This document shows, one piece after another, positions 4,201-64,000 of a stretch of DNA of 64,000 bases. The notes below the pieces were generated by a model. It did no database searches, was not told the origin of the DNA, and saw only the letters and a program-made list of their open reading frames with translations. The stretch spans positions 22,231 through 86,230 of the forward strand of contig JARYLV010000005.1 in the NCBI GenBank assembly GCA_029907465.1, given 5' to 3'. A program made the position numbers and the translations under genes. Source of the DNA: Methanomassiliicoccales archaeon. Lineage in GTDB: Archaea; Thermoplasmatota; Thermoplasmata; Methanomassiliicoccales; JACIVX01. Positions within the stretch are counted from its first letter, which is position 1; every line of letters begins with the position of its first letter.

Positions 4201-6240
4201 TTCATCGATAACTCTTTCTCGTATCCAGATACCATTGTCGCTTGGAACTGGGAGTTTGGAGACGGTGGTACCAGTAATGAGAAGAACCCTGAGCACATCT
4301 ATTCTCAGAATGGAACCTTCACCGTAGTCCTCAGGGTTTGGGACGAAGACGGGAGTACTAATTCCTCTTCGCTGGTCGTTCAAGTGCGTGATTCCGTTCC
4401 TACGGTTCTATTCTCCTTCAATCCGCTGGATCCAAAAGAAGGTCAGCCAGTAATGTTTGAAGATAACTCAACAGCGTATGACGGAATTGTGTCCTGGTCA
4501 TGGGACTTTGGTGATGGGACACATTCTAGCGAGAGAAATCCAAGCCACTATTACGCTGACAATGGCACATTTAATGTGAGACTTACTGTCGTCGACGGGG
4601 ATGGGTCGGTTGCCTCTTTTGAGAGACAGCTCTCTGTCAAAGATACATCCCCCGTTATACTCAAGATGAGCGCACGATCAAATGGTGGCCAGATTATCGA
4701 GGATGCGGAGATAAGTATAGAAGTTGAAATAGGACTTGGATGGGAGAGCCCAAAGAATTTAGGATACTTCTGGGACTACAATTTTTCTGGCACCTTTGAT
4801 ATTTCTGAAATCACGCAAGTAAACAAGACAGTTCACTCCTACCCTAAGCAGGGTACATACTTAGTCGCGGTCAGAGTATGGGATTCTGATTCTTTCGTTG
4901 AGGAAAGCATCATCATAACTGTTTACAACGTAAAACCTGAGGCCAAGTTTTCCTATAGGCTCGTGCAAAGCGGGGAAATTCGATTTGATGCAAGCCTGTC
5001 AGAGGACACTATGAGCGATCTCACTACTTTGGAATACCAATGGAACTTTGATGATGGCAGAGGATGGTCAAATTGGAGCCGTAACCCGGTTGTCCTTCAC
5101 ATGTTCGAGAGTGATGGCAACTATAGTGTCTCGCTGAGAGTGAGGGACGATAACGGCGCAGTGGATGAGACGAGCGCGTGGGTAACCGTTGACAGAAGCC
5201 CGCCAAGCATAGGGAACATCATGGTTGGAGAGGCTATCGTGGGAAAAGCGATCACGGTAACCGCGAGCGTTGAAGACAATATCGCTCTGAGAAATGTGAC
5301 CTTGTTTTACGAAGTTAACAATGAGACCTTCTCAACGCCGATGCTCAAAAGCGAAGGGTCGAGCAACATCTGGGTGGGTCAGATCAAGAGTTTAAACAAG
5401 ACAGGGATTATTGTTTATTGGATTGAAGCAGTCGATGTCAGTGGGAATAAGTTCACAACGGGGAAGCTTGAAGTCCTTGTCACCGAGAAAGCGATCCAAC
5501 CCTCTTTTTGGATCTTGGGCTTGAGCATCGCTGGGCTTGTACTTGGCGGTTTGTACGTATACGTAAGGCAGTTCTCGACAGCTGTTGATGAAGTCTTTGT
5601 GATCTACGAAAATGGATGCCTTATCGCCCACGATACACGCCGGTTGAAACCTGGAATGGATAATGATGTTCTCAGCAGTATGCTCGTCGCGATCCAGGAC
5701 TTTGTAAAAACCGCATTCAAGGACGAGGACACAACAGCACTCAAACGGCTTGACTTTGGCGAAAAGAAAATCCTTGTTGAGAAGGGAGAGAAGATTTACC
5801 TGGTCGCTGTTCTCCACGGAAAGTATGACTCAAAGATCGCACAAAAGATGCCAAAAATTCTGAACGAGATCCATCGGGATTACGGCAGCATCTTTGCACA
5901 ATGGGACGGGGATCTTGAAAAGGTGAGAGGTGTACGGGATAAAGCCCATCTCCTTTTTGCAAGAGAATGGAAGATCCCAGTCGAATTTTTCAAGTCGATC
6001 AGAAAACGCCTTAGTATTGAAAGAGCTCTGACGGTCGAATGCCCGATATGCGGTGAAAAGATTTCACCAAAGAATAGTCAGTGCCCCTCATGTGGGGCCG
6101 AGTTAGACTACGCCGATATATCTGAACTTGAAGATCTGGCAAAAAAAATTGGCCAGGGAGAGGGAACCCCAAGTATCAAGAATGAAAGTGGAGATCAGAA
6201 TATAAAAGGACCAAACGATTCAAATGAAGACGGGTTGTGA
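1288..6240 (+). CDS. Giant (1650 aa) type I membrane surface protein: signal peptide, FG-GAP/VCBS repeat region, 6 PKD domains, Ig-like domain, one TM helix, cytoplasmic Roadblock/LC7-like domain and C-terminal zinc ribbon
   Basis: N-terminal signal MNKFCGAVLLSVLLMITVPLVS. Repeated Ca-binding-like motifs: DFNNDSRKDIAVG, GDLDGDGTDDIIV, DFDGDGFNDFA, DLDQDGHPDLAIGD, DINGDGRPDVVI. PKD signatures such as WEFGDGT..THTYxxxGTYxVxLTVTD occur six times. TM helix FWILGLSIAGLVLGGLYVYV. Tail VFVIYENGCLIAHD..MLVAIQDFV..ILVEKGEKIYLVAVLHG followed by CPICGEKISPKNSQCPSCGAEL. Confidence 0.9.
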   Translation: MNKFCGAVLLSVLLMITVPLVSERPEIGQHQSIISQAQHFLLEGENGPAGNFDLFTTVLRTKNDPAFIRVGDFNNDSRKDIAVGSGVNKTIELFFQRTDGTFAIEPSRTINLGSTITGMAIGDLDGDGTDDIIVTSATIRRAYLLYQRFDYSISYKDARPDPYGVVINDFDGDGFNDFAYVSYNSSISPNCTFTVHLKKTGFFPENYVRLDIPAGLFRATLIETADLDQDGHPDLAIGDTDFSRIAIYKGGIVSGIPTWTQIQIIDSSSLRNPIEMHFIQVDMLGPEELVVLSERDNKITIFKYDSAIRQLIEYITKENLDDPITTTMLDANDDSIHDLISVSRDSCLVEIFLTKLALPYGEPNFTFPSNAFPLKAISADINNDSLDDLIISADATSLNGSITIYYRLKSGFLSNANENIFLDGGSLPTSIVQGDFDKDGIVEIGAICTNNTLKFHKISQHETGSKVTGISPFEAKTADLTNDTVPDIVVSNSGSNNITFYFGGDAFFQNQAVSLSLQINESLDSPRGISINDINGDGRPDVVIACDFGIQIFFNIGAPSYFDEFHSSTILAPGSSYTHLTTGNFNAGYETTMRWPAMIDIAAFNSSARKLEIYFQHYPSHSFSILQRAEFVPDASSVAVSLNSGKINSDSLVDLVVPLNNGLLVVYIQKTGLPNGFSDGSGSKFSTFLQNGIWTGSIGDLDDDGFDEIAVMSNRIGLISSIEFDGSAFKHIQSFSCGGGFGNLLVADVNGDLRHDLLISSPLSAAISINYQNNLPPRALALCASSPPLQEGTGVFFDGRNSSDSYSDRASLNYTWFFGDGHIYYGDTAFHIFMADGNYNVSLRVIDRGGLSNYSNITVIIEDLSPTASFNINPSEVNEGSAVEFVDTSRSYPDPIISRRWEFGDGTIVDGNSSSVTHTYMKDGTYRVNLTVTDSDESVSSTSIEIRVRDNIPSVSFIVSPASPIENSKVSFIDNSFSYPDTIVAWNWEFGDGGTSNEKNPEHIYSQNGTFTVVLRVWDEDGSTNSSSLVVQVRDSVPTVLFSFNPLDPKEGQPVMFEDNSTAYDGIVSWSWDFGDGTHSSERNPSHYYADNGTFNVRLTVVDGDGSVASFERQLSVKDTSPVILKMSARSNGGQIIEDAEISIEVEIGLGWESPKNLGYFWDYNFSGTFDISEITQVNKTVHSYPKQGTYLVAVRVWDSDSFVEESIIITVYNVKPEAKFSYRLVQSGEIRFDASLSEDTMSDLTTLEYQWNFDDGRGWSNWSRNPVVLHMFESDGNYSVSLRVRDDNGAVDETSAWVTVDRSPPSIGNIMVGEAIVGKAITVTASVEDNIALRNVTLFYEVNNETFSTPMLKSEGSSNIWVGQIKSLNKTGIIVYWIEAVDVSGNKFTTGKLEVLVTEKAIQPSFWILGLSIAGLVLGGLYVYVRQFSTAVDEVFVIYENGCLIAHDTRRLKPGMDNDVLSSMLVAIQDFVKTAFKDEDTTALKRLDFGEKKILVEKGEKIYLVAVLHGKYDSKIAQKMPKILNEIHRDYGSIFAQWDGDLEKVRGVRDKAHLLFAREWKIPVEFFKSIRKRLSIERALTVECPICGEKISPKNSQCPSCGAELDYADISELEDLAKKIGQGEGTPSIKNESGDQNIKGPNDSNEDGL
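3600..5195 (+). repeat. Tandem PKD-domain coding repeats (protein-level repeats, about 80 aa each, six copies) inside the giant gene
   Basis: A recurrent (W/F)xFGDG...NPxHxYxxxGxxxVxLxVxDxxG pattern appears in the translated ORF. Confidence 0.75.
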
Positions 6241-7892: not shown

Positions 7893-8015
7893 GGTATGAC
7901 GGCCATAGCGGCGGGGATACACCCGGTCTCATCCGAACCCGGCAGTTAAGCCCGCCCACGTTCCCTGTTGTACTGTGGTGCGCGAGCCCACGGGAAGCAG
8001 GGATCGCTGTCAGCC
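7893..8015 (+). rRNA. 5S ribosomal RNA (stand-alone, not linked to 16S/23S in this window)
   Basis: GGCCATAGCGGCGGGGATACACCCGGTCTCATCCGAACCCGGCAGTTAAGCCCGCC...GTACTGTGGTGCGCGAGCCCACGGGAAGC...GCTGTCAGCC follows the archaeal 5S consensus (CAUAGC..CCGAAC..AGUUAAGCC..GUACUG..GCGAG..GGGAAGC). The terminal helix pairs 5' TGACGGC with 3' GCTGTCA. A T5 run follows at 8026-8030. Confidence 0.9.
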
Positions 8016-21073: not shown

Positions 21074-21148
21074 GGGGCCGTGGGGTAGCTTGGTCCATCC
21101 TTCGGGCTTTGGGAGCCTGAGACCCCGATTCAAATTCGGGCGGCCCCA
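21074..21148 (+). tRNA. tRNA-Pro (anticodon UGG)
   Basis: Hand-folded cloverleaf. Acceptor GGGGCCG/CGGCCCC. Anticodon stem CGGGC/GCCUG with loop UUUGGGA. T arm CCCGA-TTCAAAT-TCGGG. Discriminator A, no encoded CCA. Confidence 0.9.
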
Positions 21149-30244: not shown

Positions 30245-30357
30245 CCCGACTTAGCTCAGTCTGGCTAGAGCGGCTGACTGTAGTGGGTTACCGGATTGCC
30301 GGTCAAACAGCCGCCGAGATCAGCAGGCCCCCGGTTCAAATCCGGGAGTCGGGACCA
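30245..30357 (+). tRNA. tRNA-Tyr (anticodon GUA) with a 35-nt intron at 37/38 (30284-30318); CCA encoded
   Basis: Hand fold. Acceptor CCCGACT/AGTCGGG, giving the C1:G72 pair typical of archaeal tRNA-Tyr. D arm GCTC..GAGC. Anticodon stem GCTGA/TCAGC with loop CUGUAG|intron|A. T arm CCCGG-TTCAAAT-CCGGG. Ends in ACCA. Confidence 0.85.
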
Positions 30358-35232: not shown

Positions 35233-36696
35233 ATGCCCGAGAAAAAACTTGAAGAGTTGCCGGGTGTTGGCCCTGCAACTGCTGAGAAACTTCGTGACGC
35301 CGGTTATACGGATCTAATGAGTATCGCGGTCGAATCACCGAAGACCCTGGCTGAAATAGCGGAAATCGGAGAGAGCACAGCCGCAAAGATCATCGCCGCA
35401 GCGAAACAGGCGGCGGATGTAGGAGGATTTGAAACGGGAGATCAAGTCCTCGAAAGGAGAAAGAATATCCACAAACTGACCTCCTGTTCTAAGGCCCTCG
35501 ACGAGTTGATGGGGGGAGGATTTGAAACCCAATCAATTGTCGAATTTTATGGCGAATTCGGGAGCGGGAAGTGTGTTTCTGCCGGAACACCCGTCATCTT
35601 TGAGTACGGTAGGTCACCATTAGTATCCACTATAGAAGATGTTTTTGACATTTACAAAGAAGAAAACGGAAAGGAGACTTTCGATAACGGCGAAATTGTT
35701 TCAACTCATGGTACGAGAGTCCTAGGCTTCATCAATGGAGTGGTCAAACCAGTATATGCATCACATATCTATAGAGAGAGGGTCAAGGAGCTTGTTGAAA
35801 TTGAGACCGTAAAGGGACGCACGATTGCACTCAGTATGGCTCACAGACTCCCAGTTGTCGTTGACGGGGGGGTTCAATGGCTTCGAGCGAGTCATATCAA
35901 AAGGGATCAAAAAATTGCGGTCGTAAATGCCGTCTATGATGAACTTCTTCGATCATTCGATAAGGGTCAAAAAGTCTTCTCAGATAGGGTCAAATCTATA
36001 CGAATAAACCAGTACAATGATTACATCTACGATTTCGTGGTTCCTGAGGGTCATTCATTTGTCGGCGGGTCCTTGCCAACAATTCTCCACAACACTCAAC
36101 TGTGTTTTCAGCTCGCGGTTAATACGACGATGCCCGTTGAAAGGGGTGGATTGGAGGGCGAAGTCGTAGTCATTGATACGGAAAACACATTCAGGCCAGA
36201 GAGGATCGTTCAAATGGCGACAGCCCTTGATCTTGACCCTATCGAGACTCTGCGAAAAATTCACGTCGCAAGGGCTTACAATTCGCATCATCAGATGCTT
36301 CTCGTCGAAAAGGCAGCAGACCTTGCGAAAGAGCGACCGATCAGGTTGATGGTCGTCGACTCGCTCACAGCCCATTTCAGAGCGGAATACATCGGGAGGG
36401 GAGCGCTCGCAGAGAGGCAGCAGACTCTCAATAAACACATGCATGATCTCATGAAGTTCGCGGATGTCAATAACGCCGTCATCGCTGTGACAAATCAGGT
36501 CGCAGCGAAGCCAGACGCATTTTTCGGAGATCCCACGCGTCCCATCGGAGGACATATCGTCGGACACACAGCGACTTTCAGGATTTATCTCAGGAAAAGC
36601 AAAGGGGGAAAGCGTATCGCAAGATTGATCGATTCGCCGAACCTCCCCGAAGCAGAGGTCGTCATCACGATCTCAGAGGAAGGAATTCGTGACTGA
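35233..36696 (+). CDS. radA: DNA repair and recombination protein RadA, interrupted by a mini-intein in the P-loop
   Basis: The N-terminal HhH is [17 protein letters not shown]. Walker A GEFGSGK is split from TQLCFQLAV by a 174-aa insert. Downstream are [14 protein letters not shown] and LMVVDSL. The mature size would be 313 aa. Confidence 0.95.
35572..36093 (+). mobile_element. RadA mini-intein (174 aa, no homing-endonuclease domain) inserted between GSGK and TQ of Walker A
   Basis: It begins with Cys (CVSAGTPV, block A). Block B is [11 protein letters not shown]. Blocks F/G are [19 protein letters not shown], followed by the +1 Thr (ACT at 36094). Confidence 0.9.
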
Positions 36697-44126: not shown

Positions 44127-44432
44127 ATGGTACTGACGCCGCACATGAAACAACTCGGCATAACTCCAGATCTTCTTAAGACAACGAAACGGGTAACATG
44201 TCCCCGTTGCGGCAAGACTTTTAGCTTGTTCCAGTCGAGGGCGATCGCATGTAGAGGATGCAGAAGGTCCGCTACGACCTGTGAGCTAGCAAGGTGTCCC
44301 TTCTGCGACTTTGAGTTCCCACTCCAGCAGCTCATCGTGTCCAGTGAACAAAGACAGAGAGAGATCTCAAGATACATGAACAAGATCGTCGGTGATTATC
44401 ACAGGAGCGTTGGCAAGAAAACCTCCCGTTAA
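44127..44432 (+). CDS. Small Cys-rich (8 Cys) putative zinc-binding protein
   Basis: CPRCGKTF..ACRGCRRSATTCELARCPFCDFEF. It is convergent with the radical SAM gene and overlaps it by 4 nt. Confidence 0.4.
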   Translation: MVLTPHMKQLGITPDLLKTTKRVTCPRCGKTFSLFQSRAIACRGCRRSATTCELARCPFCDFEFPLQQLIVSSEQRQREISRYMNKIVGDYHRSVGKKTSR

Positions 44433-45796
44433 CCTTTCTTATATTTGGAAAATATCTCGTGCCTGTACAAAGTCTTTCCGTGAACGCTGTTTATGTTGAA
44501 GAGGCAGAACGGGATCAAGCGACCATCTGGGGTTACCGTGTGGATACAACAATTTTTAAGCCTCTCTGTCTCCACATTCCAGACATCCTGGAAGGGCATC
44601 GTCGAAACGGTAAGGTAGTGCGTCTTCGCTCTCTGAATAAATCCGAGCCATGTTCCGTCAAGGTCTCCCTCATTACTGCTACTGATCGAGTCTTCGATGT
44701 ACCGCCAGAGATCGCATATCTCCTGCCTTGTCTTCTTCGCAATCTGGCTTGTTTCACGCGGTGGACCGAGTGCTCTTTGGGTCAGTGGAAACAGCGTGCC
44801 ATCTTCCATTAGAATCGACATCGATTTCGCATCGCAGTGCACGTTTGCGCAGGAAGTGGGGATAAAATTATCAGCCCTTAGTTCTCCCTTTGTCTGCTCC
44901 TCGATCGCTTTGAGAAGGTCTGGGAGGAGTACGCGATCCTCATCTCTTGGTACCGATGGGTATCTACCAAAATAACTCAGCGGTTGGAAATGGACCCCTT
45001 TGACGGTCGGTATCCATTTCTTGGCAAACTGGATGATATCTCCGATCTGGTGAAAATTCACATTTCTCGAAACGACGACCACTAGGGTGACACCCATACC
45101 CACCTTCTGACAGTTTTCGAGGGCTTTGAGTTTCGTGTCAAGAAGGTCTCTCCCGCAGGTCTTCACAAAGACATCGCCGGTGATGCCGTCAAACGAGAAA
45201 TAGAGAGAGTCTACGCCAGCCTCCTTAATTTTCCTCAAGTAGTCCAGATCCTCTGCGAGCCGAACGCCATTGGTATTGACTTCGATATAATCAACGCCCA
45301 TGCCCTTTCCCATTTTCACTATATCAGGGAGATCATCCCTGATTGTGGGCTCTCCGCCACTGATCTGCACGGCGATTGGATGCTTAACATAATCAACAAC
45401 CGTCTGAAACATCTCTCGGATTTCTTCAATCGACGGATGGAACCTGTATCGCTCGTTCGCACTGGCAAAGCAGATCGGACACTTGAGGTTACAGCCGTTG
45501 GTGACCTCAAGGACAACGAGACAGGTGTGCTGGATATGATCTGGACACAGACCGCAGACTTCTGGACATGTGCCACTATTCTTAACTGCAATCCTCTCAG
45601 GCTTCGATTTTACACACGAATAGCGTTCAAGGTCCTTGTAGTCCATAACGCCACGCCAGATAAGAACTTTGAAAGTTCCGTGATCTGGGCATGTCTTGAC
45701 TAGATAAACTTTGTCATCCTCAGCAATTTTCTCTGCGGGTATCGTCCTCAGACATTCTGGGCAGAGGCTCTCTGTTTTCCCAATTAGTTCGCTCAT
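44429..45796 (-). CDS. Radical SAM protein of the MJ0619-like family (candidate tetraether lipid synthase Tes/GDGT-MAS relative)
   Basis: The N-terminal Cys4 segment is SLCPECLRTIPAE..KTCPDHGTF. A second Cys cluster reads CPEVCGLCPDHIQHTC. The radical SAM motif is NGCNLKCPICF, with a GGEPT SAM-binding motif. The family assignment is from memory of the MJ0619 N-terminus. Confidence 0.8.
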   Translation of the reverse strand: MSELIGKTESLCPECLRTIPAEKIAEDDKVYLVKTCPDHGTFKVLIWRGVMDYKDLERYSCVKSKPERIAVKNSGTCPEVCGLCPDHIQHTCLVVLEVTNGCNLKCPICFASANERYRFHPSIEEIREMFQTVVDYVKHPIAVQISGGEPTIRDDLPDIVKMGKGMGVDYIEVNTNGVRLAEDLDYLRKIKEAGVDSLYFSFDGITGDVFVKTCGRDLLDTKLKALENCQKVGMGVTLVVVVSRNVNFHQIGDIIQFAKKWIPTVKGVHFQPLSYFGRYPSVPRDEDRVLLPDLLKAIEEQTKGELRADNFIPTSCANVHCDAKSMSILMEDGTLFPLTQRALGPPRETSQIAKKTRQEICDLWRYIEDSISSSNEGDLDGTWLGFIQRAKTHYLTVSTMPFQDVWNVETERLKNCCIHTVTPDGRLIPFCLFNINSVHGKTLYRHEIFSKYKKG

Positions 45797-46488: not shown

Positions 46489-47607
46489 TCACCATGTTCC
46501 ATATGTTCCGTAGTCCCTGGCCGCTTTGACCAGCGCTAGGAGGTTGCCTGGAATCGTGTACGGCGGCGTCTCGCATGAAGTACCAAGAATGTATCCCTTC
46601 GGGCTGTCACGTCCAGCCAATATCTGCGCCTTCGCCTGCTCATATGCAATCTTGGGGTTCGGGTTGATCATCAGCTTTGTGTCAACCGATCCCATGATGG
46701 TCGAACGGTTTCCGAATTCTTCCTTTAGAAGCTTAGACGGGAATGGATCCCTACCGTAATACCCGATGTGAATCACATTGAACGGAGACCAGAATAGCGT
46801 GTCCTTGAACACTTTGTAGTCGGTCTGGTGGTTGCCGCAGAGGTGATAGAACAGCTGGGGTCCTGCCCCGCCTCTAAAGGCCTTGTCAACATAATATTTC
46901 ATGTAGTTCGCTGAGTACTCTTTCACGGCTTCGTCTGAAAAGATATCATTGTTAGCAAGGACGGAGCCGACGATCAACATCGCCATGCCAAACCTGTTCG
47001 CCAATCCAATTGCCCCGTTGACCGATGTATCCGTGTATTTCTTAACGAGTTTGTGTGCTGCTTCGGGTTCAGTGAATGTCCACATGATGAAATTCTCAAC
47101 GCCACAGAGCTCGGCTGCCGCACCAACAAGGTCGAAACCGTAGGAGATCGGGACGAGCGTCATCGGAAGGTTCTTTTGCACATACTCGTAGATCCTGATG
47201 AATTCGGGCAGGGTATACCCCTTCATTAATTCATCAACATCTGGTACGTGGATGTTGTCGACCTGTCCCGGCTCAGATATGATCGGTCCAGTAGATATCG
47301 GAGGCAAAGTGTCCTTGTACTGCAGTGTCAATCCCAACTCCCTTACCCACGGAAGCGAGTAGAACCAGTGCGTCACAGGTAGTAGGTCGTACAGTTGCGA
47401 GATATATCCGACGCAGTGGATTCCCAACTCAGGCTTCTCGTAGAAGTCTCGAATCGTGAACCCGCAGGCTACCGCAGCGTGCGATAGAATAATCGGATCC
47501 ACGTCGATCCTGTCGTGCGCTACATCGACGAACGGGGAGGCGAATCGCTTATTAGCATTTGCATGCCACTTCATATCCATTCCTGGAAATAGTTCTTCGT
47601 AGCCCAT
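46489..47607 (-). CDS. Uroporphyrinogen-decarboxylase-fold methyltransferase (MtaA/CmuA-like, putative Zn-dependent methyl-corrinoid methyltransferase)
   Basis: FYHLCGNH (an HxC zinc-ligand context) plus a later GTSCETPP Cys. The length and layout resemble MtaA/MtbA. ATG 47607 (MGYEELF), preceded by a TATA-like ccttaaatat, is preferred over the track start 47682. Confidence 0.6.
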   Translation of the reverse strand: MGYEELFPGMDMKWHANANKRFASPFVDVAHDRIDVDPIILSHAAVACGFTIRDFYEKPELGIHCVGYISQLYDLLPVTHWFYSLPWVRELGLTLQYKDTLPPISTGPIISEPGQVDNIHVPDVDELMKGYTLPEFIRIYEYVQKNLPMTLVPISYGFDLVGAAAELCGVENFIMWTFTEPEAAHKLVKKYTDTSVNGAIGLANRFGMAMLIVGSVLANNDIFSDEAVKEYSANYMKYYVDKAFRGGAGPQLFYHLCGNHQTDYKVFKDTLFWSPFNVIHIGYYGRDPFPSKLLKEEFGNRSTIMGSVDTKLMINPNPKIAYEQAKAQILAGRDSPKGYILGTSCETPPYTIPGNLLALVKAARDYGTYGTW

Positions 47608-47970
47608 TATGTACCCCCAAAAAAGATTACCGCCTTTACGATATTTAAGGATTACTTTATTACTTTTGAAACAATTTTTCAAAAAAGATTGTTAAGTTGT
47701 GTTAATATGCAACATTATTCGATTTCATTTCAATAATAAGCAACAATGTTTCATTCTAGAAGATATGTCTCATCCAGCCCATTCTCCGCATTTTTAGAAA
47801 TGGAATGATAGATACTTAAAGAATAGTTTAAAAGAAAATGGAGGCGAAATGATCGATTCGTTACAAATTAATTGCCACCTTTTCGATTTGACTAGATCCA
47901 GCTGCTTAAAAATAACTCCCTCTATTGGAATTGATGGTCCCAGCACTGATCAATAAGTCTCTTTCTATAC

Positions 47971-52139: not shown

Positions 52140-52252
52140 TGCGGGGGGAGGGATTTGAACCCTCGGACCCCTTCGGGACAGAATGCCTTACGGAAAGGCG
52201 CATGGCTTCCGTCTTAAGTCCTGCGCTTTTGGCCAAGCTTAGCTACCCCCGC
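52140..52252 (-). tRNA. tRNA-Leu (anticodon UAA), class II long variable arm, with a 28-nt intron at 37/38 (52185-52212)
   Basis: Hand fold of the reverse complement. Acceptor GCGGGGG/CCCCCGC. 3-bp D stem GCT/AGC. Anticodon stem CAGGA/UUCUG with loop CUUAAG|intron|A. Variable arm UCCCGAAGGGGU. T arm GAGGG-TTCAAAT-CCCTC. Discriminator A. Confidence 0.85.
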
Positions 52253-54466: not shown

Positions 54467-54570
54467 TTATGGACTTTACATGGAGACTTTCAAAAGCTGG
54501 CGGAATGTTATTGATTCTCCATTTTTGGCGCTCAGAGAGGTTATATACGAATTCCATCAATTCCAAACAC

Positions 54571-54762
54571 ATGTGTGAATCATCGGTTTTTCTTGAAGAA
54601 AAGGATGAGGTCCGCGAAGTAATGAAGGATGTCACAAGGATCATCATGGACGGTCACAATGCGATCTGTGTCAATATCATAGGGGAAAGGATGATTTTGG
54701 AAAACGTGGTATTGAAAGAGGCTAATCTCCTCAGCCATGGTATCGTTTTCAAGAGGATGTGA
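54571..54762 (+). CDS. cooT: CooT-family nickel-binding protein
   Basis: 63 aa starting MCESSVFLEEKDEVREVM...; the N-terminal Met-Cys and beta-rich pattern match CooT. It abuts cooC directly. A TATA-like ggttatatac lies at 54537-54546. The track ORF starts further upstream at 54469. Confidence 0.7.
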   Translation: MCESSVFLEEKDEVREVMKDVTRIIMDGHNAICVNIIGERMILENVVLKEANLLSHGIVFKRM

Positions 54763-55572
54763 ATGGCGCTGAAAATCGCTGTCTCGGGTAAAGGAGGTGT
54801 CGGTAAGACGACCGTAGCTGGGATTCTGGCCCGACTCTTTGGAAGAGATGGAAAAGAAGTTCTCGTTCTTGATGCAGATCCAGCATCAAATCTTGCGAGC
54901 GCGATCGGCGTTCCAAAAGAGGTGGCGGAGAAAATTGTCCCCCTCTCGAGAATGCTCGATCTCATCGAGGAAAGAACGGGCGTCAGGCCAGGTTCTAGCT
55001 ACGGTGGCGTTTTCACAATCAATCCGAAGGTCGATGACATCTCGGCGAAGTACGCTGTAGAAGGAAAGGATGGTGTTAAACTCCTCGTACTTGGAACAAT
55101 TAGCACCGGTGGGGGAGGCTGTTTCTGCCCTGAAAGTGCGCTCCTCAAGAACCTCATACGTCACCTTGTTCTCCAGAAGAATCAGTATCTCATCATGGAT
55201 ATGGAAGCGGGACTCGAGCATCTCGGGCGCGCCAGTTCAAGGAATATGGATGTGATGCTTGTTGTTGTCGAACCAGGCATGCGATCGCTCGAAACGGCTG
55301 CCAAGATCAAGGAACTGGCAAATCAAATCGGAATCAAAAGAGTCGTGGCAGTTCTAAACAAGGCGTCATCACAAAATGATAAAAAAGTTGTTGAAGAGAC
55401 GCTAAATAAATCAGGATTGCCGCTTGCTACGACAATCCCATTCAATAGAATGCTGATAGAGGCTGACCTCAAAGGCGTCTCGCCTCTTGACGTAGAAGGG
55501 ACCGAGGACGTTGTTTTGGCCATTCGAAAATTGAAGGAGGAGTTGGAGAAAGAGGTAGCTATTTCCCAGTAA
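54763..55572 (+). CDS. cooC: CO dehydrogenase nickel-insertion ATPase CooC (AcsF-like)
   Basis: A deviant Walker A (IAVSGKGGVGKTT), a CxC nickel motif (GGGCFCPE) and IMDMEAGLEH. Confidence 0.85.
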   Translation: MALKIAVSGKGGVGKTTVAGILARLFGRDGKEVLVLDADPASNLASAIGVPKEVAEKIVPLSRMLDLIEERTGVRPGSSYGGVFTINPKVDDISAKYAVEGKDGVKLLVLGTISTGGGGCFCPESALLKNLIRHLVLQKNQYLIMDMEAGLEHLGRASSRNMDVMLVVVEPGMRSLETAAKIKELANQIGIKRVVAVLNKASSQNDKKVVEETLNKSGLPLATTIPFNRMLIEADLKGVSPLDVEGTEDVVLAIRKLKEELEKEVAISQ

Positions 55573-56341
55573 ATTTTGCATCCCTTTTCTCCAAAAAAGC
55601 TCTCATCCCTTCCTTTTGATCCTCCGTGGAGAAACAAATCGCGAAGCCTTTTGCTTCGAGAGCAAGCCCTGTCTCAAGATCAACATCAATTCCTTCATTG
55701 ATGAGCTGTTTAGCCATTCTTACTGCGATCTGCCCCCTTGAAGCGATCGTCTTTGCCAGATTCCTTGCTTCTTCCATCAGTTTCTCAGGGGGGACAACCC
55801 GATTGACGAGACCAATTCTCAACGCCTCCTGCGCGTCGATCATGTCGCCCGTGAAAATCAATTCCTTGGCTTTCATCTTCCCGAGAAGTCTCGGCATCCT
55901 CTGTGTGCCTCCAAACCCCGGGGGGATTCCAAGCTTCACTTCTGGTTGACCTATTTTTGCCTTTTCTGAAGCAATGACGATATCGCAGGCCATGAGCAAC
56001 TCACAACCGCCACCGAGCGCGTAGCCGTTAATCGCAGCGATCACTGGCTTTGACATCTTCTCGATGTAGAGGAAGACGCTATTTCCGAATTCTGAGAAGG
56101 CTTTGGCCTTTACTGGATCGAGTTCACTCATTTCCCCAATGTCCGCACCAGCGACGAACGCACGATCACCAGCTCCAGTAATGATGACCACGCTCACAGC
56201 GCTATCATTCTCGCATTCCATAAGCGCTTCTTTTAGGTCCCGGAGCACGTCGGTCCTCAACGCATTCAAAACCTTTGGTCGATTAATCGTAATGATCGCA
56301 ATCCCTTCGTCCTTTTCGAGAATTACATGTTCGTATGGCAT
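55559..56341 (-). CDS. Enoyl-CoA hydratase (crotonase family)
   Basis: ITINRPKVLNAL, FVAGADI, AAINGYALGGGCELLMACD and EVKLGIPPGFGGTQR. Confidence 0.85.
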   Translation of the reverse strand: MPYEHVILEKDEGIAIITINRPKVLNALRTDVLRDLKEALMECENDSAVSVVIITGAGDRAFVAGADIGEMSELDPVKAKAFSEFGNSVFLYIEKMSKPVIAAINGYALGGGCELLMACDIVIASEKAKIGQPEVKLGIPPGFGGTQRMPRLLGKMKAKELIFTGDMIDAQEALRIGLVNRVVPPEKLMEEARNLAKTIASRGQIAVRMAKQLINEGIDVDLETGLALEAKGFAICFSTEDQKEGMRAFLEKRDAKFTGK

Positions 56342-56809
56342 TTTTCTTTCCTCCGAGCAAAAATATTCTTGCCGGCATAAAGTCTTTCTTGATCTCCCTA
56401 TACGAGAATTTTCTCAAAACATGATGCTAACAAACCGATTAAAATGAGGAGCGAACCGCTTGAATGATGCATATGTCAATTGATAATAAGTTTCGAAGTT
56501 GAAATATCAAAATCAATTAAGGAGCTTTCATCAAAATTGAAACGAACTCAGTGGCAACTGAATCAAAGGGATGGCTGACAAACCAGCCCATGGGTTTCTA
56601 TAAATTTGGACGTCATTAGTCCATACTGTCCATAACAATTTTATGATATTTTTGGGGAACCCCCAATAAGTTGAGAATCATTAAATAGGTCTTTTAGCAT
56701 AGTAGCGCGCAATTCAGTTTCGCAATACCTAATAAGCTACAAAACTCATAAGGCCGCATCGGGAGGCTGAGAAATCAAAAGACCGATTCAAATGAGAGGA
56801 GAGAACTAG

Positions 56810-57346
56810 ATGATCGGTAAGGGATACTGCTACAAGGATAAAAGGATCAGCCCACTTCAATTCACAATGATGATCATGCTTCGCGAAAAACCGATGTATG
56901 GTTACGAATTACTGAAAAAATTGAGGGAGGAATTCAAGGGACTCTGGACTCCTCAAACTGGTTCAATTTATCCATCTCTCAAGAAACTTGAAAGCCACGG
57001 ACTCGTAAAATCTGAAACGAGACACGGTACCGATTATTACTACCTTTCAGACGAGGGAAATACCTTCGTTAGTGAGAGCCTCGCCAAGATTCCAGGCGAT
57101 ATCGAATTCATGATTCGATACCTGAACATACTGGCTCGTGCCGCTTCTAGTGTTCGCGATGAAAATCCAGAAAAGCATATTCGTGCTTTCCTCAACGATT
57201 TTGAACAGGACGTCTGCGATCCCAAGGAAAGACTAGAGGCTCTTAGAAGCATGAGGGAAATCCTCGTCTCGAAGCTTGCATCAGTACAAGCCAAGATCGA
57301 AGAAATCGAGAAAATGATGAAACCGAAAAGGGGTGAATCACCTTGA
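56810..57346 (+). CDS. PadR-family transcriptional regulator
   Basis: PMYGYELLKKL......GSIYPSLKKLESHGLV. It lies upstream of the ABC-2 exporter genes. Confidence 0.85.
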   Translation: MIGKGYCYKDKRISPLQFTMMIMLREKPMYGYELLKKLREEFKGLWTPQTGSIYPSLKKLESHGLVKSETRHGTDYYYLSDEGNTFVSESLAKIPGDIEFMIRYLNILARAASSVRDENPEKHIRAFLNDFEQDVCDPKERLEALRSMREILVSKLASVQAKIEEIEKMMKPKRGESP

Positions 57347-58350
57347 ACGCGGTTATTGAAGTCGAAAATCTCGTCAAGGTATACAATGGAACGATTCGTG
57401 CAGTCGACGGTGTGACATTTTGTGTTGAGAAAGGCGAAATCTTCGGATTCCTCGGTCCCAACGGGGCAGGCAAAACGACGACGATTTCGATTCTCACGAC
57501 TTTACTTAAACCGACGAGTGGTGTTGCAAAAATCCTAGGCCACGATGTCACAAAAGAACCTTACAAAGTAAGGAAACTCATTGGCCTTGTCCCACAAGAA
57601 CTGACTGTGGACGATGATCTAACAGGTCGAGAAAATATGCTACTTCAAGCGGACCTATACGGTGTCCCAAGGCGTGAAGCGATTGAAAGAATAGATGAGT
57701 TGCTCTCACTTGTCAACCTCGAAGATGCTGCAGATAGACTCGTCAAGACCTACTCCGGTGGAATGAGAAAGCGCCTTGAACTGGCAGAAGGACTCATTCA
57801 TCAACCATCCGTTCTATTCCTCGATGAGCCGACACTGGGCCTTGATGTGCAAACGAGAGCGGCTATATGGAATCATATCCGTGATCTGAAAAAGAAACAC
57901 AATATGACGATATTTATGACGACACACTATCTCGAAGAAGCCGACTCTCTTTGCGATCGCATCGCGATCATCGATCACGGACGAATCATGGCGCTGGACA
58001 CACCTGAAACACTTAAACGGTCGATCGGCGGGGATGTTGTTCAGATCAAGGTGAACAGTGATTCAGATCTAACAGACCTGATTCAAAATGTCGCAGGTGT
58101 CGTGAATGTAAAGAAAGAGGGGGACGAGTACAGGATTAAGGCCGTTAACGGTGAGAAAATCATACCTGCGCTACTCAAAGTGATCGTTGATCACGGCGTG
58201 AGTGTTGAAAGTGTGCACCTGGAGCGACCAAATCTTGATCAGGTATTTCTCGAGTACACGGGTAGATCGCTTCGGGATGCCGAACAAACTGGATCGATGG
58301 ACAAGTTTCAGCGAAGAGCTGCAGCACTTCAAGCAAGGAGGAGGAGGTAA
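57343..58350 (+). CDS. ABC transporter ATP-binding protein (ABC-2/DrrA type)
   Basis: GPNGAGKTTT, YSGGMRKRLELA and LFLDEPTLGLD. Confidence 0.9.
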   Translation: MNAVIEVENLVKVYNGTIRAVDGVTFCVEKGEIFGFLGPNGAGKTTTISILTTLLKPTSGVAKILGHDVTKEPYKVRKLIGLVPQELTVDDDLTGRENMLLQADLYGVPRREAIERIDELLSLVNLEDAADRLVKTYSGGMRKRLELAEGLIHQPSVLFLDEPTLGLDVQTRAAIWNHIRDLKKKHNMTIFMTTHYLEEADSLCDRIAIIDHGRIMALDTPETLKRSIGGDVVQIKVNSDSDLTDLIQNVAGVVNVKKEGDEYRIKAVNGEKIIPALLKVIVDHGVSVESVHLERPNLDQVFLEYTGRSLRDAEQTGSMDKFQRRAAALQARRRR

Positions 58351-59214
58351 ATGGAAAGCGGGAATGTTTTAAGGCAGACATGGACGCTCATGATTCGCGA
58401 GCTGAAACACTGGTATCGCGTCAAAATTCAGATTTTCATGGCCCTCATACAACCTATAGTTTGGCTCGGACTTTTTGGACAGGCGTTCCAGCTTAACAAA
58501 TTAATTCCGGCGGGCGACCAGATTCCGGGATCATTGCCGCCTTTTAATTTTTCCTTAATGTTTGCCGGAGCTCCAGATTATTTCTCCTACATGGCCGCAG
58601 GCATGCTCGCTGTGATCGTCTTATTCACTTGCATGTTCGGCGGGATGTCGATCGTCTGGGATAGAAGGTTTGGATTCCTCGACAAGCTACGCGCATCGCC
58701 GATTCCGAGAGGAGTAATTCCAGTTTCAAGGATTGGAGCAACGGTCATTCGTGCTATGATTCAGATGCTGATCGTCTTCGTTATTGCACTCCTCTTCACG
58801 TACGTACCAGGACTCACTGGGCTAACCCTCAACCCCGGATTCAATGCACTGGACTTCGTCGGACTATTCCTCGCTATGCTGCTACTTGCAATAGCGTTTG
58901 CGTCGTTATTCACAACAATCGCGCTCGCTGTTGAAAACCAGGAAACTCTTTTCGGCGTGATCAATCTACTGAACCTCCCGATCATGTTCGCATCTGCGGC
59001 CCTATTCCCAACGACCCTCATGCCAGACTGGCTAAAGGCGGTAGCAAACTACAACCCGTTGACGCTTGCCGTCGATGCAGCAAGGATATTCATATTCCAC
59101 AATCCGAATCCAATCTACAACCTCTGGATCGACCTCGGTGGACTTGCACTCTTTGCATTCACGCTACTGGCAATCAGCGTTATACTCTCGAGAAAGCTAA
59201 TGGGCGCAAAGTGA
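58351..59214 (+). CDS. ABC-2 type transporter permease
   Basis: Six TM helices. It follows the ATPase directly, and T-runs follow at 59225-59241. Confidence 0.8.
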   Translation: MESGNVLRQTWTLMIRELKHWYRVKIQIFMALIQPIVWLGLFGQAFQLNKLIPAGDQIPGSLPPFNFSLMFAGAPDYFSYMAAGMLAVIVLFTCMFGGMSIVWDRRFGFLDKLRASPIPRGVIPVSRIGATVIRAMIQMLIVFVIALLFTYVPGLTGLTLNPGFNALDFVGLFLAMLLLAIAFASLFTTIALAVENQETLFGVINLLNLPIMFASAALFPTTLMPDWLKAVANYNPLTLAVDAARIFIFHNPNPIYNLWIDLGGLALFAFTLLAISVILSRKLMGAK

Positions 59215-59224
59215 AGGACGCTGG

Positions 59225-59241
59225 TTTTTTTCTTCTTTTTT
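59225..59241 (+). terminator. Oligo-T terminator after the PadR-ABC operon
   Basis: A T7 run, then CTTC, then a T6 run, starting 11 nt after the stop. Confidence 0.5.
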
Positions 59242-59452
59242 ATTCCTTTAATTGCAATCTTATTGCAACCAATGATAGATGAAACAATTATTCCCTCGAT
59301 TTGGCTGATGACACGATTTGAAGTCAATCATTCCATAGCCATCTATCTTGGTCTATTGTCATTGATTTTCCAAATTTCGATCAAATAATCCATCAGAAAC
59401 TGATAACAACTTTTATCAGGGGAGATCATATTGAGGGCATTCGGGCGCGGGA

Positions 59453-60388
59453 ATGAGACTTTGGGACTTTGCAAGACTCAAGGGATCAAAGATAAAAATA
59501 AGTGAGAAAATCGGAAAACCACTTGGACTTGTTGACGGGAGCCAGGTCTTTAGTTCGATGTTCCGCTATGACTACAACGGCAGGACGAGTTACGAGATCG
59601 TCCTTTCAACATTCGGGCCTGAAAACTACAGAGAAATATGTGACGCAACTTTCTATATGCTGGATGTTCCCGGAGCATGTGCACAGATTGCAAAATTCCT
59701 TGGCGATAGGAATATCGACATTCTTAACTCCGTATCCCTCAGCGTCATTTCAAACGTTTGCATGATGTGGAAAATGCTTGTCGACTTGAGTTACTACGGC
59801 GATTATGAAACTCTCCAAGAAGAATTCGCAAAGCTGAAACAAGAGCGGTCTTCACTCATAGACAAGGTTGAAGCAATGGAGATCAGACCTTCACACATCA
59901 GCGATCGGTATACAAAAGGTGTTGTCCCGCCAGGAACCTCAATAAGGACAAAAACGACGAGGAAAATTCACAGGACCCCATCGATCATCAAGAATGGAGA
60001 GTTCGAAATCCCATCTGAATACCTAGAAACGATAGAGGGAATCGCCGAGGGGCAGATCGTCATGATGGTAGGCGATACAGACGCTTGGATTCTCTCATTG
60101 ACCTTCCTTGACCCGCGTACTGAACTCCTTGAAATCGATTTCATCATCCCCGATAAACCTGGTGCGATATATGAAATTACCAAAATACTCGCAAATTTCA
60201 ATATTAACCTCGTGTCAGTATATACAAAAGTACTCGTCTATTACGATACGATGACGCTTGAACTGGTTGGCGACATCACAAACTCGAATTTAAAGGTTGA
60301 AGATCTGAAGGAAGAGATCAAGGAAAGAGTTATGAAACTAAAGGGTAGATATGAACTGATCAGAATTGAAAAAATCGAAATCCCATAA
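59453..60388 (+). CDS. Hypothetical protein with two ACT-like domains, each preceded by an AbrB/SpoVT-like segment
   Basis: ACT-like segments: YMLDVPGACAQIAKFLGDRNIDILN and IIPDKPGAIYEITKILANFNINLVS. AbrB-like segments: KIKISEKIGKPLGLVDGSQV and EFEIPSEYLETIEGIAEGQIV. Domain calls are pattern-based only. Confidence 0.5.
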   Translation: MRLWDFARLKGSKIKISEKIGKPLGLVDGSQVFSSMFRYDYNGRTSYEIVLSTFGPENYREICDATFYMLDVPGACAQIAKFLGDRNIDILNSVSLSVISNVCMMWKMLVDLSYYGDYETLQEEFAKLKQERSSLIDKVEAMEIRPSHISDRYTKGVVPPGTSIRTKTTRKIHRTPSIIKNGEFEIPSEYLETIEGIAEGQIVMMVGDTDAWILSLTFLDPRTELLEIDFIIPDKPGAIYEITKILANFNINLVSVYTKVLVYYDTMTLELVGDITNSNLKVEDLKEEIKERVMKLKGRYELIRIEKIEIP

Positions 60389-61159: not shown

Positions 61160-64000
61160 ATGGAAGCTAACGAGAAGATTTGTGCAACCAGGACTTGCGA
61201 CATAGGCGCCCAGCCTATAATAATATCCGCTTCAGAGAAGAACATTGAGACGACATGGGATCGTTATGAAACACAGCTACCACAATGTGGATTCGGTGAA
61301 CTGGGTATCTGCTGCAGGAACTGTCTGCAGGGCCCCTGCAGAATAGATCCTTTTGGTGGAGAACCTAAGAAAGGGATCTGCGGAGCGAGAGACTATACGA
61401 TCGTTGCGAGAAACATCATTAGGAACATCGCGGGCGGTGCTGCCGCACACTCAGGCCATGGCAGACATATCGCTGAGACGATGCTGAAGGCGATCGAAGG
61501 CAAAACTACGGCTTATAAGATTAAAGACGTGGGCAAACTCAAGAGAGTTGCCAAGCGTATTGGCATCGAGACCGAAAAAATCGACACTAACGAACTTGCG
61601 AAAGAGGTTGTGATGCAGGCCCTCGAAGATTACTCGCGATACGAGCGCAAACCGCTGACGTTCACAACGACGACAATCACGAAAGCCCGCACTAAGTTAT
61701 TCGAGGAAAAGGGTGTAATGCCAGACAATATTGACCATGCAATTTCCGATGTGATGCACCGCACAACACTCGGTTGTGATGCTGATCCTGTCCCTATTCT
61801 TTTTGGCGGCATCAAATGCGCGATTGCCGACTACAATGGTATGCAGATTTCGACTGACTTATCCGATATTCTTTTTGGGACACCGCGTCTCGTTAGAACC
61901 TATGCCAATCTCGGCGCGCTGAAACCAGATGCGGTTAACATCGCAGTTCATGGCCACAATCCAGTCCTCAGCGACATAATCGTTGATGTTGCGAGGGAAA
62001 TGGAGGAGGAGGCAAGAGCTGCCGGTGCATCGGGCATCAACATCGTCGGTATCTGCTGCACCGGGAACGAGACGTTGATGAGGAAAGGCGTCGCGATGGT
62101 TTCGAACTTCGCTTCACAGGAGCTTGTGCTCGCGACGGGCGTTGTTGACCTAGTGGTTGTGGATTACCAATGTGTCATGCCCTCTGTCGCAGAAATCTGT
62201 TCATGCCTTCACACCGAGATGATCACTACAATGCCAAATGTCCACATCCCTTACGCAACGCATGTTCAATTCAGAGAGGAGGATGCTGAGAAGAGCGCCA
62301 GATCAATCATCCAGATGGCTATCGAGGCGTTCAAGAAGAGGGATAAGAGCAAGGCGAATGTACCAGATGTCAAGTACGAGGTCATTGCGGGATTCAGTCT
62401 TGAACAAATTGAGGAACTTTGCTCGAAATTCAACCAAGACGATCCAATCATGCACGTTGTTGATAATATCCGCAACGGAACGATCAGGGGAATCGCTCTG
62501 ATGGCTGGATGCAACAACCAGAAAGCCGTGCAGGATTTCAACCATATCACCATTGCAAAAGCACTCATAAAGAACGATGTTCTCGTGCTCGCTACAGGAT
62601 GTTCCGCAGGCGCGTTTGCGAAACAAGGTTTGCTTTCCGCCGAAGCGACGGAGAAATACGCGGGGGAGGGCCTCAAGAAATTCTTGAAGGAGCTCGGAGA
62701 GAAAAATGGCATTAATCTACCCCCGATATGGCACATGGGCTCTTGCGTAGATAACACGCGTGCTGCGAATTTTGCAACGGCGATCGCCAATAGATTTGGC
62801 GTCGATGTTCACCAGATTCCTTTTGTCGCCAGCGCACCTGAAGCGAATCATGAGAAAGCGGTTTCGATCGGTACATGGGCCGTTGCTCTTGGATTACCTG
62901 TTCATGTGGGGACGATCAACTACATTTTCGGGTCATCACTCGTCACTGAAGTACTCGAGAACACGGCGAGAGACGTCTACGGCGGATACTTCATCTTTGA
63001 GAGGGATCCGTTCAAAGCCGCAAAGAAGCTCCTCAACACTGTCGAGTATAGACGTTGGGTTCTCGGCCTTGATAACAAGTATGTTGTGGAAAGTGGTGAG
63101 CCGATCAGCCAGAAGAGATTGTTCGAGATGGCGATCGAGGGTGCAATCATAGCGGTGGGGTACGCTGATCAGCTTCTAAGCGTCGCAATTGAGAAGTATG
63201 GATATGATCAGAAGATAGAATATCCAGATACTGGTTTCGAACTTCCATCGATTTATGCATGGGATGGGAGGGAGGTCAAGAAGCTTGGTGATCTGCCACC
63301 AATACTCGGTAAAGTCAGAGGGAAGATCAGAGAGGAGCCCACATATGAAAATGCACTAATCGCAGGCGAGGCGACAATGATTGCGGCGGAAATTGTTGAG
63401 GCGTTGAAATACATCGAGACGGATAAGCCCTACGAAGGGACACCGTACTGCGGGTTCGTGCCCGACAGGACACTGAGAGAACTGGGTATTGCGTTCGTTG
63501 ACGACACGATACCAGGCTGTGCTGTGCTCGTCGGCTGTGCCAAGAACCCGAAGGACCTTGCCAAGATCGTGAGGGACTGCCAGAGCAAGGGGATGCTCAT
63601 TATCGCGACGTTCGACACCATCAGGCAGCTACGTGATGAAAACATCAAGATGGGTCTCGATCGGATGCTGTATCCGGTTGGTGAATTCACTCAGGCGATA
63701 CATGGTCTGAACTTCGCGATTAGGGCTGCGCTTGCGTTCGGCGGTATCAAGAGAGGTGACCGCGAGAATCTCTACAAGTATCTTTCAAAGAGGCCAAAAG
63801 TCTTTGTGCTCCAGATGGGCCCCATTGACCATATTAAGGCTGCTGCAGAGTTCGCCGTCCTCTTTAACGGTTCCCCGACGATCACCGATCAGGACGTCGA
63901 GGCGATTCCTGACAAGTATGTTGTGCAGAAAGATTACGACAAAATGATCCAGACGGCAATCGAAGTCAGGAACATCAAAGTCAAGCTCGCGCCCGTTAAC
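61160..64000 (+). CDS. Ni-CO dehydrogenase (CooS/AcsA type) fused in frame to bacterial-type acetyl-CoA synthase (AcsB N-terminal domain visible); 3' end outside the window
   Basis: Hand translation from ATG 61160, preceded by aaaGGAGGacaGGAGGatataaga, gives 947 codons with no stop. CODH motifs: CGFGELGICCRNCLQGPCRI..GICGA, AVHGHNP, GICCTGNE, VDYQCVMP, MAGCNN, ATGCSAG, HMGSCVDN. From about nt 63110 the AcsB-like sequence is YPDTGFELPSIYAWDGREVKKLGDLPPILGK, GEATMIAAEIVEALKY, YPVGEFTQAIHGLNFAIRAALAFGG. Confidence 0.9.
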   Translation, partial: MEANEKICATRTCDIGAQPIIISASEKNIETTWDRYETQLPQCGFGELGICCRNCLQGPCRIDPFGGEPKKGICGARDYTIVARNIIRNIAGGAAAHSGHGRHIAETMLKAIEGKTTAYKIKDVGKLKRVAKRIGIETEKIDTNELAKEVVMQALEDYSRYERKPLTFTTTTITKARTKLFEEKGVMPDNIDHAISDVMHRTTLGCDADPVPILFGGIKCAIADYNGMQISTDLSDILFGTPRLVRTYANLGALKPDAVNIAVHGHNPVLSDIIVDVAREMEEEARAAGASGINIVGICCTGNETLMRKGVAMVSNFASQELVLATGVVDLVVVDYQCVMPSVAEICSCLHTEMITTMPNVHIPYATHVQFREEDAEKSARSIIQMAIEAFKKRDKSKANVPDVKYEVIAGFSLEQIEELCSKFNQDDPIMHVVDNIRNGTIRGIALMAGCNNQKAVQDFNHITIAKALIKNDVLVLATGCSAGAFAKQGLLSAEATEKYAGEGLKKFLKELGEKNGINLPPIWHMGSCVDNTRAANFATAIANRFGVDVHQIPFVASAPEANHEKAVSIGTWAVALGLPVHVGTINYIFGSSLVTEVLENTARDVYGGYFIFERDPFKAAKKLLNTVEYRRWVLGLDNKYVVESGEPISQKRLFEMAIEGAIIAVGYADQLLSVAIEKYGYDQKIEYPDTGFELPSIYAWDGREVKKLGDLPPILGKVRGKIREEPTYENALIAGEATMIAAEIVEALKYIETDKPYEGTPYCGFVPDRTLRELGIAFVDDTIPGCAVLVGCAKNPKDLAKIVRDCQSKGMLIIATFDTIRQLRDENIKMGLDRMLYPVGEFTQAIHGLNFAIRAALAFGGIKRGDRENLYKYLSKRPKVFVLQMGPIDHIKAAAEFAVLFNGSPTITDQDVEAIPDKYVVQKDYDKMIQTAIEVRNIKVKLAPVN

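Follow-up and report, generated by a model that had tools for sequence, protein, structure and literature searches.

We have analysed a stretch of 64,000 nucleotides (hereafter the window) from the Methanomassiliicoccales archaeon assembly GCA_029907465.1 (contig JARYLV010000005.1, positions 22,231 to 86,230 of the forward strand), at the end of which a single reading frame joins a Ni-containing carbon monoxide dehydrogenase (CODH) to the N-terminal part of an acetyl-CoA synthase (ACS). Translation of the window gives 947 codons on the forward strand, from the ATG at 61160 to the last base at 64000, uninterrupted by a stop. An earlier interpretation made from the letters alone (the sequence-only reading) had described this same frame, and had rightly explained its lack from the list of open reading frames (ORFs) solely by the fact that run-off ORFs go unlisted. 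Three parts can be distinguished along it, all on the forward strand: a CODH module (61160–63073; amino acids (aa) 1–638), assigned as a complete CooS/AcsA-type Ni,Fe-CODH of clade F with its D-, B- and C-cluster ligands; a linker of 12 residues between D638 and the next domain (63074–63109; aa 639–650, NKYVVESGEPIS); and the N-terminal A1 domain of ACS (63110–64000; aa 651–947), composed of a helical CODH-binding part and a Rossmann part. The end of the window cuts the ACS, whose A2 and A3 domains with the A-cluster fall past base 64000. In related bacteria and archaea the ancestral, bacterial-type pair of adjoining acsA and acsB consists of two distinct genes, whereas it forms a single frame in the window; CODH and ACS are genuinely fused in frame in this archaeal genome.

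The two modules and their cluster ligands

The first module had been described as a complete CooS/AcsA-type CODH running from codon 1 to about codon 637 and ending near 63073, and every comparison agrees with this. Pfam Prismane covers aa 50–617 (E 9e-168), NCBIfam TIGR01702 (anaerobic CODH catalytic subunit) covers aa 21–637 at profile positions 10–621 of 621 with 719 bits against a cutoff of 478, CODH-II of Carboxydothermus hydrogenoformans (1su6) aligns end to end with residues 12–637 (E 6e-221), and Moorella AcsA aligns with residues 10–643 (E 2e-204), the codon of D638 ending at base 63073. All D/B- and C-cluster motif strings that had been quoted are found in the translation. By the alignment with CODH-II, the D and B cluster ligands C43, C51, C52, C55, C60 and C74 (in CODH-II, in the same order, C39, C47, C48, C51, C56 and C70), the C-cluster ligands H266, C300, C338, C451, C481 and C529 (H261, C295, C333, C446, C476 and C526) and the acid-base pair H97 and K566 (H93 and K563) are in place, the CODH-II numbers being those established in the literature. 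The cluster ligands and the H97/K566 pair are invariant or nearly so in the 69 homologues of alignment A1. We assign the CODH half to the CooS-type Ni-CODHs of clade F, with CO oxidation and CO2 reduction as its predicted activity.

The same frame then enters the N-terminal domain of a bacterial AcsB, as had also been recognised from the letters. Pfam CODH_A_N (PF18537) matches aa 671–752 with 96 bits against a cutoff of 32, and NF040764 (CODH_ACS_al_bet) matches aa 659–945 at profile positions 1–294 of 705, reaching 270 of the 800 bits required with 411 profile positions lying beyond the end of the window. Among solved structures, residues 14–314 of the Moorella AcsB chain align with residues 644–942 (E 1e-77), and residues 16–313 of C. 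hydrogenoformans ACS (7zkj_B) align with the A1 part (E 1e-80). The latter sequence contains YPDTAYFLPVIRAFSGEEV... and GEATWYAAEIIEALRY, which are close to the strings that the sequence-only reading had given for Moorella AcsB. These matches place the visible ACS part of the window with the three-domain, AcsB-type ACS.

The continuation of the frame beyond the window can be followed in the best database match, P0001, a 97% identical protein of 1358 aa with the Prismane, CODH_A_N, CdhC and ACS_CODH_B_C domains. The A-cluster ligands form the patterns C-x2-C-x8-C-x9-C and Cys-Gly-Cys; P0001 carries both motifs (CTLCQSFAPDHVCVITPERLGLCG and SCGCFEC), and they are nearly invariant in alignment A1. 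It had been anticipated that the frame would run through the A-cluster domain, with its Cys-Gly-Cys motif, to about 1350–1400 aa, and this is what the orthologue displays. The contig that encodes P0001 (L001) comes from an independent Logan assembly and is syntenic with the window. The two are about 86% identical in DNA; of the codons that differ over the 947, 253 are synonymous and 31 non-synonymous, and no stop occurs; around the junction (codons 626–665) there are 9 synonymous and 2 non-synonymous differences. This excess of synonymous changes in a frame that has been kept is the mark of purifying selection on a single continuous frame. Moreover, in a set of loci built from one genome per GTDB species plus L001, 22 loci keep the frame open, free of stops, from the last CODH block into the first ACS block. 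Of the best 120 protein matches, almost all are 1300–1434 aa long with the same four Pfam domains, a few being truncated.

Two loci of this family deserve mention for their own peculiarities. In L038 (OY968769.1), the chromosome of a long-read metagenome-assembled genome (MAG), the CODH-ACS frame shifts from 1 to 3 and back to 1 with similarity kept, which looks like assembly indel errors and not a real split. In L018 (6001–11688; Methanomassiliicoccales archaeon SMAG_U14898, DATJOX010000053.1) the fusion gene is an ORF of 1896 aa that holds an intein (Pfam Intein_splicing, aa 1145–1675) with a LAGLIDADG homing endonuclease, located in the C-terminal A-cluster part of ACS.

Linker and predicted structure

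The linker occupies the place that in split-gene relatives is taken by a stop codon, an intergenic gap and a start codon. Measured from YRRW at the end of CODH to LFxMAIEG at the start of ACS, the spacing falls across the family into three classes of 20, 26 and 29–31 residues, the Methanomassiliicoccales-type subclade of the window having the shortest (20 residues), and linker motifs are kept within subclades. An AlphaFold2 (AF2) model of the 947 aa, built with the alignment of 69 sequences, reached a mean predicted local distance difference test score (pLDDT) of 88 and a predicted template modelling score (pTM) of 0.90, with pLDDT of 89–94 in the 10-residue blocks that span the linker. These scores are consistent with a fixed packing of the modules, in which A1 would be docked on the CODH of its own chain. 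Foldseek superposed the CODH part of the model on CODH-II with a TM score of 0.96 normalised to the target; against the PDB it matched the model to single chains only, and is therefore silent on the relative orientation of the modules. In the alignment with 7ZKJ, the separate subunits leave 14 and 15 unaligned terminal residues, against about 10–12 residues in the fusion. Since some 29 subunit-end residues are replaced by a linker of about 12, the tether is short and must constrain the geometry.

Genomic context and accessory genes

Genes for nickel handling lie about 6 kb upstream of the fusion. A cooT-like nickel chaperone gene of 63 codons (54571–54762, forward strand) is contained in the ORF 54469–54762, of which residues 35–93 match Pfam CooT (E 9e-10), and L001 and L083 have the same gene, called at 63 aa. 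It is directly followed by a gene for a cooC-like P-loop ATPase of 269 aa (54763–55572, forward strand) with matches to the P-loop families CbiA, ParA and ArsA_ATPase; this pair stands upstream of the fusion in the window, in L001 and in L083. By family membership and position, the ATPase is probably the nickel-insertion maturase of the C-cluster. The interval from cooC to the fusion (55559–60388) holds an enoyl-CoA hydratase gene on the reverse strand, a PadR regulator, an ABC-2 transporter pair and an ACT-domain protein, an order matched in L001; in L083, cooT-cooC is found immediately upstream of the fusion.

The 3′ side is visible in L001, where the fusion is followed by acsD (CdhD family, 318 aa) and acsC (FeS plus CdhD, 450 aa), then by a second cooC-like ATPase, the corrinoid activator RACo and a ferredoxin. 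The order cooT-cooC, further on the fusion and then acsD-acsC-cooC-RACo is seen in L001, L082 and L083, and an AcsE-like pterin-binding methyltransferase is added in L082 and L083, which carry fused genes of two other subclades. The contigs of L082 and L083 also hold an archaeal tRNA-intron endonuclease and V-ATPase subunit I, one of them being a chromosome of 1.7 Mb. Taken together, these accessory genes and archaeal neighbours amount to a full bacterial-type module of CODH/ACS and corrinoid iron-sulfur protein inside archaeal genomes.

The window itself bears archaeal marks. Among its genes is one for an archaeal CCA-adding enzyme (TIGR03671, with a score above the cutoff). The RadA recombinase at 35233–36696 (forward strand) matches NF003301 above cutoff in two stretches and has an intein N-terminal splicing region at aa 114–207, and is thus an intein-interrupted radA. 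Rfam tRNA matches at 30245–30354 (forward strand) and 52140–52252 (reverse strand) span 110 and 113 nt against a model of 71 positions; both were missed by ARAGORN, whose only call in the window is a tRNA-Pro at 21074–21148, and they are probably intron-containing archaeal tRNAs. The CCA-adding enzyme, the intein-split RadA and the two intron-type tRNAs together indicate that the window is archaeal. Near-identical gene fragments were found in the Methanomassiliicoccales MAG LCB019-061 (L021, L027).

Distribution, split relatives and evolution

Among the matches listed, the named sources of fused proteins are MAGs of Methanomassiliicoccales, Thermoplasmata, ‘Methanobacteriota’, Bathyarchaeia and Halobacteriota, with no cultured organism seen among these named sources; many members are named as combined CODH/ACS by the Joint Genome Institute (JGI). 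When a library clustered at 50% identity was searched, P0081 alone among the best 150 was a full-length protein with a match to both modules, P0121 and P0175 likewise matching across the junction as what may be incomplete genes. With this single representative, the family makes up one rather shallow clade whose members share at least 55% identity. The representative library also returned four CODH proteins of 844–1122 aa (P0123, P0125, P0126 and P0132) in which the CODH domain runs from residue 219–486 onward, and which by this position carry large N-terminal additions.

The closest bacterial relatives found, about 50% identical, are from Natroniella acetigena, N. sulfidigena, Firmicutes UBA3576 and a Bacillota MAG, and they carry acsA (644–671 aa) followed by a separate, adjoining acsB (710–742 aa). 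Joined full-length tblastn matches in Natroniella, Firmicutes UBA3576 and the Bacillota MAG had made these candidates for bacterial fusions, and they were rejected once their ORFs were listed as separate adjoining genes. Split genes also occur within the archaea: in L022, L024, L025 and L035 a stop is followed by an ATG a few bases on (gap of 0–6 nt), in L023, L026 and L028 stop and start overlap as ATGA, and L033 and L034 are likewise split. The split archaeal CODH bears a C-terminal tail of about 35 aa (e.g. YWTGHTAEEIF...), and a YWxGxT motif is common to this tail and to the linker of the sister fused group. By this shared motif tail and linker are homologous, and minor changes at the junction convert one architecture into the other.

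When the two halves were concatenated (38 sequences, 1356 columns) and a neighbour-joining tree was built with 100 bootstraps, the archaeal sequences fell into one clade with 100% support, L033 and L034 forming the first branch within it. The split group L022–L028 nests among the fused sequences as sister to the ‘YWDGTT-linker’ subclade (86% support), and monophyly of the fused sequences alone was recovered in none of the 100 bootstraps. Such nesting implies either a single fusion and a later fission, or two or more fusions, and the fused/split architecture is evolutionarily labile. The horizontal acquisition that the sequence-only reading had taken to be implied by a bacterial-type enzyme is plausible, but no more than that: the related archaeal and bacterial sequences fall into separate clades that are about 50% identical, and archaeal AcsB is treated as possibly ancestral in a 2026 preprint (PMC13370988).

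Comparison with known systems and earlier reports

The two-subunit enzymes of Moorella thermoacetica (AcsA/AcsB; 1MJG, 1OAO) and C. hydrogenoformans (CODH-III/ACS; 7ZKJ) are among the closest known systems. They share with the window protein a CooS-type CODH of clade F with identical cluster ligands and the same three-domain ACS type including A1, residues 10–643 corresponding to AcsA and 644–942 to AcsB, and the fused loci have the same accessory set of AcsC, AcsD, CooC, RACo and AcsE. They differ in being two polypeptides from two genes, whereas the window encodes one chain in an archaeal host; and where 7ZKJ has its roughly 29 residues of subunit termini, the window protein has its linker of about 12.

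The A1 domain of bacterial ACS binds CODH and carries the tunnel. It is one of the features that set the fusion apart from the archaeal acetyl-CoA decarbonylase/synthase complex (ACDS; CdhABCDE, e.g. of Methanosarcina, 3CF4 and 9C0Q), which is also archaeal and has the same overall chemistry of CO2/CO conversion and acetyl-CoA synthesis or cleavage. The CdhA model TIGR00314 gave 64.9 bits against a cutoff of 781, and CdhA chains in the PDB matched in short stretches only (E 1e-5 to 1e-10). CdhC is described in passages of the same preprint as being without an A1 domain and as binding CODH just transiently (PMC13370988), whereas the window protein has A1, and the corrinoid subunits in the fused loci are of the AcsC/AcsD type. 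By these comparisons the window protein is classed outside the CdhA/CdhC-type archaeal ACDS.

Also close are the split acsA-acsB pairs of Thermoplasmata and Methanomassiliicoccales MAGs (L022–L028, L033–L035), which belong to the same archaeal clade, have an acsD-like ORF downstream in common with the fused loci and are 53–67% identical to the window protein in the blocks flanking the junction. They differ from it by having a stop and an ATG after 0–6 nt, or an ATGA overlap, and a CODH tail of about 35 aa in the place of the linker of the fused form.

The fused architecture has been recorded before. Inoue et al. (2019; PMC6344411) classified fused Ni-CODHs manually, and their Supplementary Table 1 lists OGS41472.1 (Euryarchaeota archaeon RBG_16_62_10) and OGS44063.1 (RBG_13_57_23), flagged as clade F ‘others’ without discussion or characterisation. 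The contig of RBG_13_57_23, source of OGS44063.1, is among our loci (L020); its gene is fused in frame and its protein is 61% identical to P0001. These entries share architecture and family with the window protein; the latter differs in its place within the Methanomassiliicoccales-type subclade, whose linker is the shortest. The preprint places AcsB-type ACS in these archaeal groups, and in the passages concerned the single-chain CODH-ACS form goes unmentioned (PMC13370988). A full-text literature search, which did not extend to Adam et al. 2018 (PNAS), retrieved only the supplementary-table flags of Inoue et al. for the fusion, and turned up neither biochemical nor structural work on the fused form; in the other candidate papers the word ‘fused’ had a different meaning. 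The novelty that the sequence-only reading had conditionally attached to the architecture does not hold, this form being common in public archaeal MAGs and already listed (PMC6344411). The window protein is a further member of a catalogued, uncharacterised architecture.

Proposed function and rival explanations

We consider it highly probable that the gene encodes a natural single-chain, bifunctional CODH/ACS, active as a (CODH-ACS)2 homodimer equivalent to alpha2beta2, in which the tether serves stoichiometry and co-assembly. A homodimer matching the bacterial alpha2beta2 enzyme is the most likely function in our analysis. By analogy with the solved bacterial complexes, two chains would dimerise via their CODH modules and share the D-cluster, and each A1 domain would pack on CODH. 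The C-cluster would reduce CO2 to CO, and the CO would move via a tunnel across the CODH/A1 interface to the Ni-Ni-[4Fe-4S] A-cluster, where it would be joined with CoA and a methyl group from the co-encoded AcsC/AcsD corrinoid protein to give acetyl-CoA, a reaction that may also run in reverse. The tether would replace a non-covalent interface that is already stable, and probably secures a 1:1 stoichiometry and co-assembly with no new chemistry; that a covalent fusion would fix the CO channel as well as the stoichiometry, as the sequence-only reading had put forward, is an inference. Because the nested clade has split genes, stoichiometry and co-assembly are its most likely role, with no added function.

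Several points weigh against this proposal. The window is without the catalytic ACS domains, and the completeness of the ACS leans on the 97% identical orthologue P0001; all members of the family come from uncultured organisms; the neighbour-joining tree of 38 sequences has few bacterial outgroups; and the pTM of 0.90 is indirect evidence for domain packing.

Perhaps the single chain is cleaved at the linker, or an internal start is used, and the product is an ordinary two-subunit CODH/ACS. The interconversion of split and fused forms in evolution, which suggests an inessential tether, would fit such a fate, as would the linker, a short and hydrophilic segment in which conservation is lower than in the domains. 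Yet neither Pfam nor NCBIfam detected a protease or autoprocessing motif in the linker, the AF2 model gives it high confidence where a disordered loop might be expected, and its motifs are conserved within subclades; as to an internal start, residues 639–651 are without Met or Val. We hold this explanation to be improbable.

A tether with an adaptive role beyond stoichiometry, locking one CODH/ACS interface or permitting docking in trans across the dimer and so altering CO channelling or the direction of the reaction (cleavage of acetyl-CoA against its synthesis), seems to us less probable still. Fused proteins predominate in a large archaeal clade and are maintained by purifying selection, and a linker of about 12 residues, set against about 29 unaligned tail residues in the C. 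hydrogenoformans enzyme, must restrict geometry. However, the nested split clade means that some lineages, at least, can do without the tether, and the spacing of the flanking motifs varies from 20 to 31 residues. Weakest of all, and hardly credible, is an artefact in which an indel near 63050–63130 merged separate acsA and acsB genes into one apparent frame: although close archaeal relatives with genes 0–6 nt apart mean that a single indel could mimic a fusion, and the nanopore-derived MAG L038 has several error-like frame changes along the gene, this concern, raised in the sequence-only reading itself, is laid to rest by 22 loci from differing assemblies and species that keep both blocks in one frame without a stop, by best matches that are nearly all full length, by a frame kept between the window and L001 despite differences at 14% of bases (mostly synonymous at the junction), and by a linker that comes in discrete, conserved length classes.

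Returning to the tethered homodimer, one extension of it is offered tentatively and is, in our view, unlikely: that the family, known only from a supplementary-table flag and with a natural reversal to split genes, could be a test case of fused against split enzymes and, in a stronger version, that the linker of about 12 residues might force an interface or dimer topology other than that of Moorella.

CODH/ACS stands at the centre of the Wood-Ljungdahl pathway and is a target for the bioconversion of CO2 and CO. A natural fusion, as predicted here, suggests that both activities can work on one chain, and it could ease heterologous expression by fixing a 1:1 ratio and cutting the core enzyme to one gene. 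If the extension offered above is true, the fused and split members would give a natural comparison of how far the tether matters for CO channelling and for assembly of the complex, and the family would offer a compact one-gene template for engineering. The fusion also marks uncultured archaea (relatives of Methanomassiliicoccales, other Thermoplasmata and Bathyarchaeia) with a bacterial-type enzyme where ACDS would be expected, and this bears on the debate about the ancestral form of CODH/ACS. In other respects the chemistry and the components are standard, and public databases already contain the architecture, so that the conceptual gain is small; the interest that remains is modest and lies in a single-chain CODH/ACS that occurs naturally, is uncharacterised and, through its fused and split forms, brings its own evolutionary comparison with it.

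Other features of the window

Further genes were noted in the window. On the reverse strand, 44429–45796 encodes a radical SAM protein that matches TrsS with 537 bits against a cutoff of 490 and also resembles the tetraether lipid synthase Tes; one small ORF beyond it, 46489–47682 (reverse strand) encodes a weak homologue of the MtaA/CmuA-family methyltransferases. An ORF of 1650 aa at 1288–6240 (forward strand) has a partial polycystin-type repeat match (TIGR00864, E 5e-26, far below cutoff) and is taken to be a large repeat-rich surface protein. Finally, a stand-alone 5S rRNA gene is located at 7895–8015.

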